A stretch of 64,000 bases of DNA from Escherichia coli (GTDB lineage Bacteria; Pseudomonadota; Gammaproteobacteria; Enterobacterales; Enterobacteriaceae), in the NCBI RefSeq assembly GCF_003334385.1, contig NZ_QOWN01000011.1, one strand, 5' to 3'. Below the pieces are notes generated by a model. The model was not told the DNA's origin. It was given only the letters and a program-made list of their open reading frames with translations, and did not search any database. Numbering within the stretch: the first letter of the stretch is position 1; each line of letters opens with the position of its first letter. Shown here piece by piece: positions 58,411-58,872 of the stretch. The translations under genes were made by a program, and so were the position numbers.

Positions 58411-58872
58411 GTCTGTATTTCCTTATCCAAAGTATGGAGAAGTTAACATTATGTTTCACAACTTCATAGTGTCTGGAAGTATTATTTTTATGACAAAGGA
58501 AATACTTTGCGCAAATATTTTTTGTTTGATTACCAGCGAAACGTTTCTCTTATTTAAATAATTACCCACACAAAATATAGGCTTTTAATTATCAACCTTT
58601 ATTATAAATAAAAGTTATGAAATATATTCTCTTCGTTAACTTATAATTAAGAGAAAAAAACTCACCGCATGGCCATTTAAGCCAGGAATAAATTAGCTTC
58701 CCGTTCATCATTTTTGTGATCTTGCGCACATCTTTGAGATAACGCACTTTCTTCACCAGTACGTTGCACGCTTTGTCAGCAGAAGATTGCAACAATCTTT
58801 CAGAAGGCCGCGAATCCCCCGTTTTGTCGTGGTAATGTATGCACTTTGTGTTAGACGGGATAGGTTTTTAAG

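Follow-up and report, generated by a model that had tools for sequence, protein, structure and literature searches.

The intergenic region between ddlA and iraP in Escherichia coli is probably a composite regulatory region left by gene loss, with a putative orphaned CRP/FNR promoter and an RbsR-type operator-like box

Composition and conserved islands of the ddlA-iraP intergenic region

The anti-adaptor gene iraP and the divergently transcribed gene ddlA are separated by exactly 462 bp in the Escherichia coli contig NZ_QOWN01000011.1, of which a window of 64,000 nt (the whole stretch of DNA that was analyzed) was available. All coordinates given below are positions in this window, which consists of K-12-like DNA and runs in reverse orientation relative to MG1655. 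iraP occupies positions 58150..58410 on the minus strand, with phoA located beyond it, and ddlA occupies positions 58873..59967 on the plus strand. The region between them (58411..58872, with no strand assigned) has a GC content of 34.2%, compared to 0.516 for the window as a whole, and no 462-bp stretch in the 64 kb is poorer in GC; segments of this length with an equally low value make up only 0.28% of the total, and all of them overlap this locus. The composition is uneven, the iraP-proximal 250 bp having 25.6% GC, with a minimum of 18% at 58550-58649, and the ddlA-proximal 212 bp having 44%. According to the curated MG1655 annotation, it is also the longest intergenic gap in the window, followed by the cyoA-ampG (459 bp) and phoR-brnQ (406 bp) gaps. 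The initial annotation had described an AT-rich stretch, among the longest non-coding ones in the window, upstream of two divergent genes and large enough to hold multiple promoters. Both parts of this description hold, since the gap contains promoters for both genes, a CRP site, a summit of FNR binding by chromatin immunoprecipitation sequencing (ChIP-seq), and a conserved RbsR-type palindrome. We consider it quite probable that gene loss left this composite regulatory region behind and that the gap is neither a gene nor a small RNA nor foreign DNA. As a kind of region it is ordinary, being a divergent regulatory intergenic region with an already known proximal iraP promoter. What is new is its anatomy, i.e., the scar of a two-gene deletion, a putative orphaned promoter bound by CRP and FNR and facing iraP, and a conserved RbsR-type operator-like box.

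A phylogenetic footprint of seven Escherichia lineages resolved the gap into a mosaic of conserved islands between fast-evolving filler. Expressed as mean pairwise identity across these lineages and read from ddlA toward iraP, the values are 0.93 for the ddlA block, 0.75 for a first filler (filler A), 0.91 for the CRP site with its relic promoter, 0.60 for a second filler (filler B), 0.83 for a block containing ATAACTTT, 0.74 for a predicted NagC site, 0.92 for the RbsR-type box, 0.68 for the spacer that follows this box, 0.89 for an A-tract, and 0.93 for the iraP core promoter with its 5′ untranslated region (5′UTR).

The two outermost islands are the proximal promoters of the flanking genes. 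On the ddlA side, the promoter and 5′UTR block (58791..58872, plus strand) is conserved across Enterobacteriaceae and includes a conserved extended -10 element, TGgTAATGT, at 58830-58838. On the iraP side, the 5′UTR and core promoter (58411..58475, minus strand) were delineated by a promoter scan and an alignment of 31 sequences. They comprise a Shine-Dalgarno sequence, AAGGAA, at 58419-58424 and two overlapping -10 candidates, namely CATAAT at 58448-58453, followed by the AT-rich GTTAAC, and an extended -10 element, TGtTAACTT, at 58440-58448. CATAAT and GTTAAC are invariant in Escherichia, and TGnTAAC is the pattern of the iraP -10 region that is conserved across genera. The iraP promoter is reportedly activated by ppGpp (guanosine tetraphosphate) and DksA and is said to have an AT-rich discriminator. 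The promoter seen here lies at the same locus, and the succession of CATAAT and GTTAAC is consistent with such a discriminator. That work reportedly concerns the proximal promoter only, and the distal CRP/FNR relic and the RbsR-type box described below are not known to form part of it. Just upstream of the core promoter, an A-tract, ATAAAAATAATAC (58479..58491, minus strand), is possibly an UP element or an alternative -10 element, and its AAAAAT stretch is among the most conserved non-coding columns across genera.

Two further blocks are found in the iraP-proximal half. The first (58583..58644, minus strand) was recognized from its conservation only. It contains ATAACTTT at 58611-58618 and reads ATAACTTTnnATTAT...GTGAnnATT, with a conserved TTAAGTTAA in front of it. 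The distance of ATAACTTT from the iraP ATG is 206 to 211 bp in Escherichia, Citrobacter, and Salmonella, usually 208 to 209 bp, and 198 bp in E. albertii. Neither a convincing promoter or terminator nor a known binding motif was recognized in this block. A hairpin preceding it was considered as a retained MFS gene terminator and rejected, its energies being weak and inconsistent (z scores from -4.5 to +1.5). The second is a NagC site predicted in silico by FITBAR (58557..58579, no strand assigned), which is not conserved even in E. albertii and is therefore probably not functional.

The marked AT richness raised the question of whether the gap serves as a platform for H-NS, Fis, or integration host factor (IHF) that silences or shapes iraP and ddlA expression. 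The 25.6% GC over 250 bp, with its 18% minimum, would suit such a platform, as would a 280-nt iraP-sense stretch rich in local inverted repeats (folding z=-2.98). However, blastn searches and the 31-sequence alignment indicate that the AT-rich part is ancestral and syntenic and was not acquired horizontally, and conservation is concentrated in discrete islands, as is typical of specific binding sites. The high-affinity H-NS motif is not enriched either, with a single weak match (two mismatches or fewer) in the gap, and H-NS is reported to act on iraD and iraM rather than on iraP. We thus regard a nucleoid protein platform as improbable.

Gene loss between ddlA and iraP

To trace the origin of the gap, 80 loci from different Enterobacteriaceae species were compared using IraP as an anchor. 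Two genes, encoding an extensin-like protein (Extensin-like_C, PF06904) and a major facilitator superfamily (MFS) transporter, both lie between ddlA and iraP in 51 of the 80 loci. The transporter is a paralogue of MdtG, scoring 543 bits, just below the equivalog cutoff of 571 bits. In these 51 loci, among them those of Salmonella, Enterobacter, Lelliottia, Kosakonia, Phytobacter, and several Citrobacter, the two genes fill an interval of ~2.4 kb, both in the orientation of iraP. The MFS gene is present alone in 13 loci and the extensin-like gene alone in 2, and losses of these genes therefore recur. Among the 80 loci, ddlA directly adjoins iraP only in Escherichia, with gaps of 450 to 464 bp, and in three Citrobacter, with gaps of ~600 bp. 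The MFS coding sequence is missing from every Escherichia locus, and the next gene in that direction is iraP.

The two ends of the E. coli gap can be matched to the corresponding ends of the longer interval. By blastn, positions 58791-58872 of the window are homologous to ddlA-proximal DNA in all genera, and positions ~58411-58643 are homologous to the DNA upstream of iraP in other genera. The ddlA block also retains, at 58791-58806, the decayed -10 element of the divergent extensin-like gene, which reads CATAAT in other genera. Two fast-evolving fillers (neither with a strand assigned) occupy the place of the missing genes: filler A (58736..58790) marks where the extensin-like gene was lost, and filler B (58645..58684) is where the MFS coding sequence disappeared along with its terminator, with no detectable homology to the lost genes. 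Neither relaxed tblastn searches nor local DNA alignment of fillers A and B with shuffled controls returned significant remnants of the two genes. Beyond the retained MFS gene lie a strong intrinsic terminator in E. cloacae and a hairpin in Salmonella, and no counterpart of them is predicted in the E. coli gap.

Taken together, these comparisons indicate that the ancestral order was ddlA, then, in the opposite orientation, the extensin-like gene, the MdtG-like MFS gene, iraP, and phoA. Both middle coding sequences and the MFS terminator were lost in the ancestor of Escherichia, and the control DNA survived. The retained CRP site and promoter relic argue against the converse scenario of repeated insertion of the two genes. 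The main cause of the length of the gap is the scar of two lost genes, a point that was absent from the initial annotation.

The neighborhood upstream of iraP is unstable across Enterobacteriaceae, with independent losses of the MFS or the extensin-like gene (loci L014, L019, L020, L022, and L078, among others). In the 2.5 kb upstream of iraP in C. koseri, K. oxytoca, and Intestinirhabdus, neither of the two genes was found, nor was ddlA detected there. The urinary isolate E. coli Ec-U7 carries an IS1A insertion within the AT-rich portion of the gap (positions 1789-2486 of locus L086, about position 58630 of the window), where it separates the CRP site and relic promoter from iraP and its RbsR-type box.

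Two open reading frames (ORFs) touch the gap. ORF67 (58592..58795, minus strand; 67 amino acids, TTG start) spans the deletion scar. Across the ~5,400 complete E. coli genomes in RefSeq, the Prokaryotic Genome Annotation Pipeline (PGAP) calls it in most cases, as the hypothetical protein WP_001300163.1, but it has no entry in the curated MG1655 record. ORF88 (58295..58561, plus strand; 88 amino acids, TTG start) is antisense to the 5′ part of iraP. In each of the other six Escherichia lineages, E. albertii and E. whittamii among them, stop codons or frameshifts break the frame of ORF67, and that of ORF88 is interrupted in five of the six, outside the part that is antisense to iraP. For ORF67, no NCBIfam family and no Shine-Dalgarno sequence were found, and its start lies upstream of the only plausible promoter on that strand. 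Neither ORF is a gene, in agreement with the initial annotation, which had dismissed both as artefacts, and ORF67 is likely an annotation artefact that has been widely propagated in RefSeq E. coli.

A small RNA, which the initial annotation had also envisaged, is not borne out. An Rfam scan of the gap at E≤10 returned only chance matches to microRNAs and long non-coding RNAs, no terminator-like site was detected on either of its strands, and no hairpin in the gap is consistent across species, the energies varying from one species to another. The 280-nt stretch rich in local inverted repeats does fold better than its shuffles on the iraP-sense strand (z=-2.98, versus -0.5 for the opposite strand), but this is because the DNA contains palindromes such as the RbsR-type box. 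Thus, although the PGAP calls and the better-than-shuffle folding could be read as signs of a small protein such as ORF67 or of a small RNA encoded in the gap, the broken frames, the misplaced start of ORF67, and the failure of the RNA searches make this highly improbable.

A putative orphaned CRP/FNR promoter facing iraP

Between the two fillers lies the promoter relic of the lost MdtG-like MFS gene (58685..58735, minus strand), composed of a CRP core, a 19-nt spacer, and a -10-like hexamer, TAATTT, at 58690-58695. The CRP core, TGTGATCTTGCGCACA (58715-58730), matches 9 of 10 core positions and falls within a published 21-mer at 58713-58733. In iraP sense, the relic reads TGTGCGCAAGATCACA, then aaaatgatgaacgggaagc, then TAATTT. 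The transcription start site predicted for it, at ~58683, points toward iraP, ~273 bp away, with no predicted terminator between them.

The identity of the relic was established by comparison with loci that still carry the gene. In 45 loci, a TGTGA-N6-TCACA core (9 to 10 of 10 positions) immediately precedes the MFS gene or, in the Citrobacter that lost this gene, its remnant, and TAAAAY follows this core after 19 nt, which corresponds to the geometry of a class II CRP promoter. When the 51-nt block of E. coli was aligned to the loci of 10 species, it aligned best exactly at the position of the CRP site and MFS promoter in all 10, with z scores of 4.8 to 10, and 500 shuffles yielded no equally good alignment. 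Like class II CRP-dependent promoters, the relic has a CRP core and, at a distance of 19 nt that is fixed in the orthologous loci, a -10-like hexamer, and its site binds CRP tightly in vitro. Unlike them, its own gene has been deleted in E. coli, so that the orphan faces iraP, its -10 element has drifted, and the factor found there in vivo is FNR, not CRP.

These binding data come from two published sources. The exact sequence is listed as a novel CRP site in a 2026 Footprint-seq preprint, with an in vitro dissociation constant (Kd) of 1.2 nM. In addition, Myers et al. 2013 reported an FNR ChIP-seq summit at 400,328, which they assigned to iraP with the remark “TSS not in peak region” (TSS, transcription start site), and classed iraP as directly repressed by FNR. 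Using a genome-version shift of +776 bp, which was inferred from a FITBAR coordinate and the coordinates of iraP, this summit converts to about position 58692 of the window, on the relic -10 element and 30 bp from the center of the CRP site.

Whether the relic still works is a separate matter, and a possible though rather unlikely alternative is that the relic, CRP site included, is a neutral fossil without present function, the gap acting only via the short proximal promoters of iraP and ddlA. The gene downstream is gone, the fillers on both sides evolve fast, and the “novel” CRP site is known only from an in vitro assay. The hexamer TAATTT of E. coli (GAATTT in E. albertii) also differs from the TAAAAY found where the gene is kept. 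Matches to the CRP core are no commoner in the window than expected by chance (2 found versus 2.1 expected), so that one such match in 64 kb is unsurprising in itself. The placement of the FNR summit depends on the inferred +776-bp conversion, and no good FNR box was found beneath it, the best FNR-like motifs in the gap lying at 58526-58612. All these points weigh against a working promoter, whose activity in E. coli is a prediction. On the other hand, the relic is conserved in Escherichia to the same degree as the core promoters of ddlA and iraP, with an identity of 0.91 versus 0.75 and 0.60 for its flanks. Substitutions in the CRP core are confined to the spacer, as none of the 10 half-site columns but 3 of the 6 spacer columns vary across Escherichia (Fisher p=0.036). 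Moreover, the in vivo FNR summit maps onto the relic, and iraP responds to FNR. The relic probably has a present function, which could be either a distal CRP/FNR-responsive input to iraP or interference with the proximal iraP promoter. The orphan promoter would most likely be a second, distal input to iraP that responds to carbon source and oxygen, its transcripts either reading through into iraP or interfering with the proximal promoter.

Other CRP-like sequences were noted in the window and at related loci. Elsewhere in the window, a near-perfect inverted repeat resembling the CRP core occurs only once, as CGTGACAAGCGTCACA at 22655-22670 in the short convergent pgpA-yajO gap, and may simply be a terminator stem. 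In three Citrobacter loci (L011-L013, positions 2388-2403, corresponding to ~58507-58522 of the window), a CRP-like TGTGATTATTAACACA is centered ~105 bp upstream of the iraP ATG, roughly at a class I position. The same position reads TGTGATTATTTGCGCA or TGTGATTATTTACGCA in other Citrobacter and a degenerate AAAAAATATTTGCGCA in E. coli. Ancestral iraP may have had its own proximal CRP input.

An RbsR-type box upstream of iraP and its possible link to RpoS

The remaining island is a palindrome at 58533..58552 (no strand assigned), which reads CCAGCGAAACGTTTCTCTTA on the plus strand and AGAGAAACGTTTCGCT in iraP sense, with a perfect 10-bp core, GAAACGTTTC, at 58538-58547. Its center, at 58542.5, is ~132 bp upstream of the iraP ATG. 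In the alignment of 31 species, the palindrome is the best-conserved non-coding element upstream of iraP after the core promoter, the A-tract, and the Shine-Dalgarno sequence. The ancestral, AT-rich region upstream of iraP holds the known ppGpp-activated core promoter, an A-tract, and this RbsR-type operator-like box, which lies ~100 bp upstream of the likely start site.

The sequence of this box resembles that of an element of the ribose operon. Just upstream of rbsD, MG1655 carries a 20-bp perfect palindrome, TCAGCGAAACGTTTCGCTGA, which is known as the RbsR operator (an assignment attributed to Mauzy & Hermodson 1992). The iraP box agrees with this palindrome at 15 of 16 bases (58535-58550) and at 17 of 20, and it is the only match with three mismatches or fewer in the 64-kb window. 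Among the 80 loci, a box with up to three mismatches was found in 58, always 116 to 133 bp from the iraP ATG, and the best match elsewhere in the 5-kb loci usually has five mismatches. The invariant half of the box, GTTTCGCT, is identical to the half-site of the rbsD operator. The Cra and PurR consensus sequences fit the box at only 10 of 16 positions. We find it fairly probable that RbsR binds the box.

The position of the box differs from that of the rbsDACBKR operator. The two are alike in being LacI-family-type palindromes of 16 to 20 bp around a central CG, AGCGAAACGTTTCGCT, the iraP box having one perfect half-site. The rbsD operator, however, lies between the promoter and the ribosome-binding site, i.e., at a repressor position, and the iraP box lies far upstream, so that its effect would need activation, insulation, or a roadblock. 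Indeed, the box is ~100 bp upstream of either -10 candidate, and classical repression is therefore unlikely; its sign would be wrong as well. An increase of iraP expression by RbsR finds its closest functional parallel in the upstream activating sites of Cra (FruR), which are well established, and at which a LacI-family dimer on a GAAACGTTTC-type palindrome upstream of the promoter has a positive effect. Unlike Cra sites, the box has outer half-site bases that fit RbsR (10 of 16 to the Cra consensus), and the effector would be ribose instead of fructose phosphates.

A positive role of RbsR in RpoS control has emerged from recent genetic work. In a Salmonella study of 2024, transposon insertions in iraP and rbsR were recovered from the same screen for faster growth on succinate, and, among the Succ+ mutants assayed for RpoS, a drop in RpoS protein was confined to the iraP and rbsR deletions. 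Transcription of rpoS was unchanged, and the authors proposed an unknown indirect mechanism; iraP expression was not examined. In an E. coli study of the same year, deletion of rbsR left the gadB promoter, which depends on RpoS, nearly without activity, and no mechanism was given. A preprint reported that rbsD mRNA titrates the small RNAs DsrA and ArcZ and so lowers RpoS translation via Hfq, the effect of ribose requiring rbsD. Among the papers of the searched library that name both RbsR and iraP (or yaiB), none describes RbsR binding at iraP.

A direct positive effect of RbsR on iraP would connect these observations, and we put it forward only tentatively. According to this proposal, RbsR would bind the iraP box when ribose is absent and thereby sustain iraP expression, either in the manner of Cra, activating from an upstream site, or by shielding the iraP promoter against transcription that arrives from upstream. 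IraP would then fall in the presence of ribose or upon loss of rbsR, and RpoS would be degraded faster. Several points weigh against this proposal: activation by RbsR is poorly documented, the box is missing from 21 of the 80 loci, it does not occupy a classical LacI-family repressor position, and the preprint explains the effect of ribose on RpoS via rbsD mRNA, without iraP. An appreciable possibility, somewhat short of an even one, is in fact that a different LacI-family regulator, for example Cra or PurR, occupies the box, or that none does, and that RbsR affects RpoS wholly via derepressed rbsD mRNA that titrates DsrA and ArcZ. In keeping with this alternative, the core AAACGTTT is generally known to be common to several LacI-family operators, the left half-site is degenerate (AGAGAAAC, AGAAAAAC), and the box is far from the promoter; the reported dependence of the ribose effect on rbsD fits it as well. 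Against it stand the identity of the conserved right half, GTTTCGCT, with the half-site in the rbsD operator, the poor fit of the Cra and PurR consensus sequences, and the finding that iraP and rbsR stood apart from the other measured Salmonella mutants in lowering RpoS. The RbsR-iraP route and the rbsD-mRNA route are compatible.

Further sequences related to the box were observed. In MG1655, a second, imperfect operator-like copy, GTAAAACGTTTCGAGG, lies ~80 bp upstream of the perfect rbsD palindrome (positions 1243-1258 of locus L085), and it resembles the variant AAAAACGTTTCGC found upstream of iraP in Enterobacter. A promoter-like pair pointing away from iraP is also present next to the box, reading ATGACA-18-AATATT in E. 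coli (58490-58519, plus strand) and ATGATA-18-AATAAT in Salmonella (positions 2421-2392 of locus L016, minus strand). It would put the RbsR-type box at about +8 to +27 of its transcript; promoter-like matches in its vicinity do not exceed the number expected by chance.

RpoS control is among the most studied of bacterial stress circuits, and the two studies of 2024, in Salmonella and in E. coli, presented RbsR as an unexpected positive regulator of RpoS, the mechanism being left unresolved. A conserved RbsR-type operator-like box upstream of an anti-adaptor gene makes a direct link between RbsR and iraP an apparently new and testable explanation. The locus also offers a clean example of gene loss that leaves a probably live transcription factor site behind. 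The relic would account for an “unassigned” high-affinity CRP site and for the distance between an FNR ChIP peak and the known start of iraP, and the analysis flags as an artefact a hypothetical protein that is widespread in the annotation of RefSeq E. coli. The full proposal joins two parts, namely that RbsR, in response to ribose, regulates iraP directly and positively via 58533-58552 and that, in Escherichia only, a CRP/FNR promoter has been fused to iraP; we regard this conjunction as rather unlikely to hold in its entirety, though possible. If it does hold, ribose would set RpoS stability via IraP, RssB, and ClpXP, in parallel to the action of rbsD mRNA on RpoS translation, which would account for the shared appearance of rbsR and iraP mutants in the Salmonella succinate screen and for the collapse of RpoS-dependent expression in the E. 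coli rbsR deletion. Loss of the MFS gene would, in Escherichia alone, have rewired iraP to carbon and oxygen signals.

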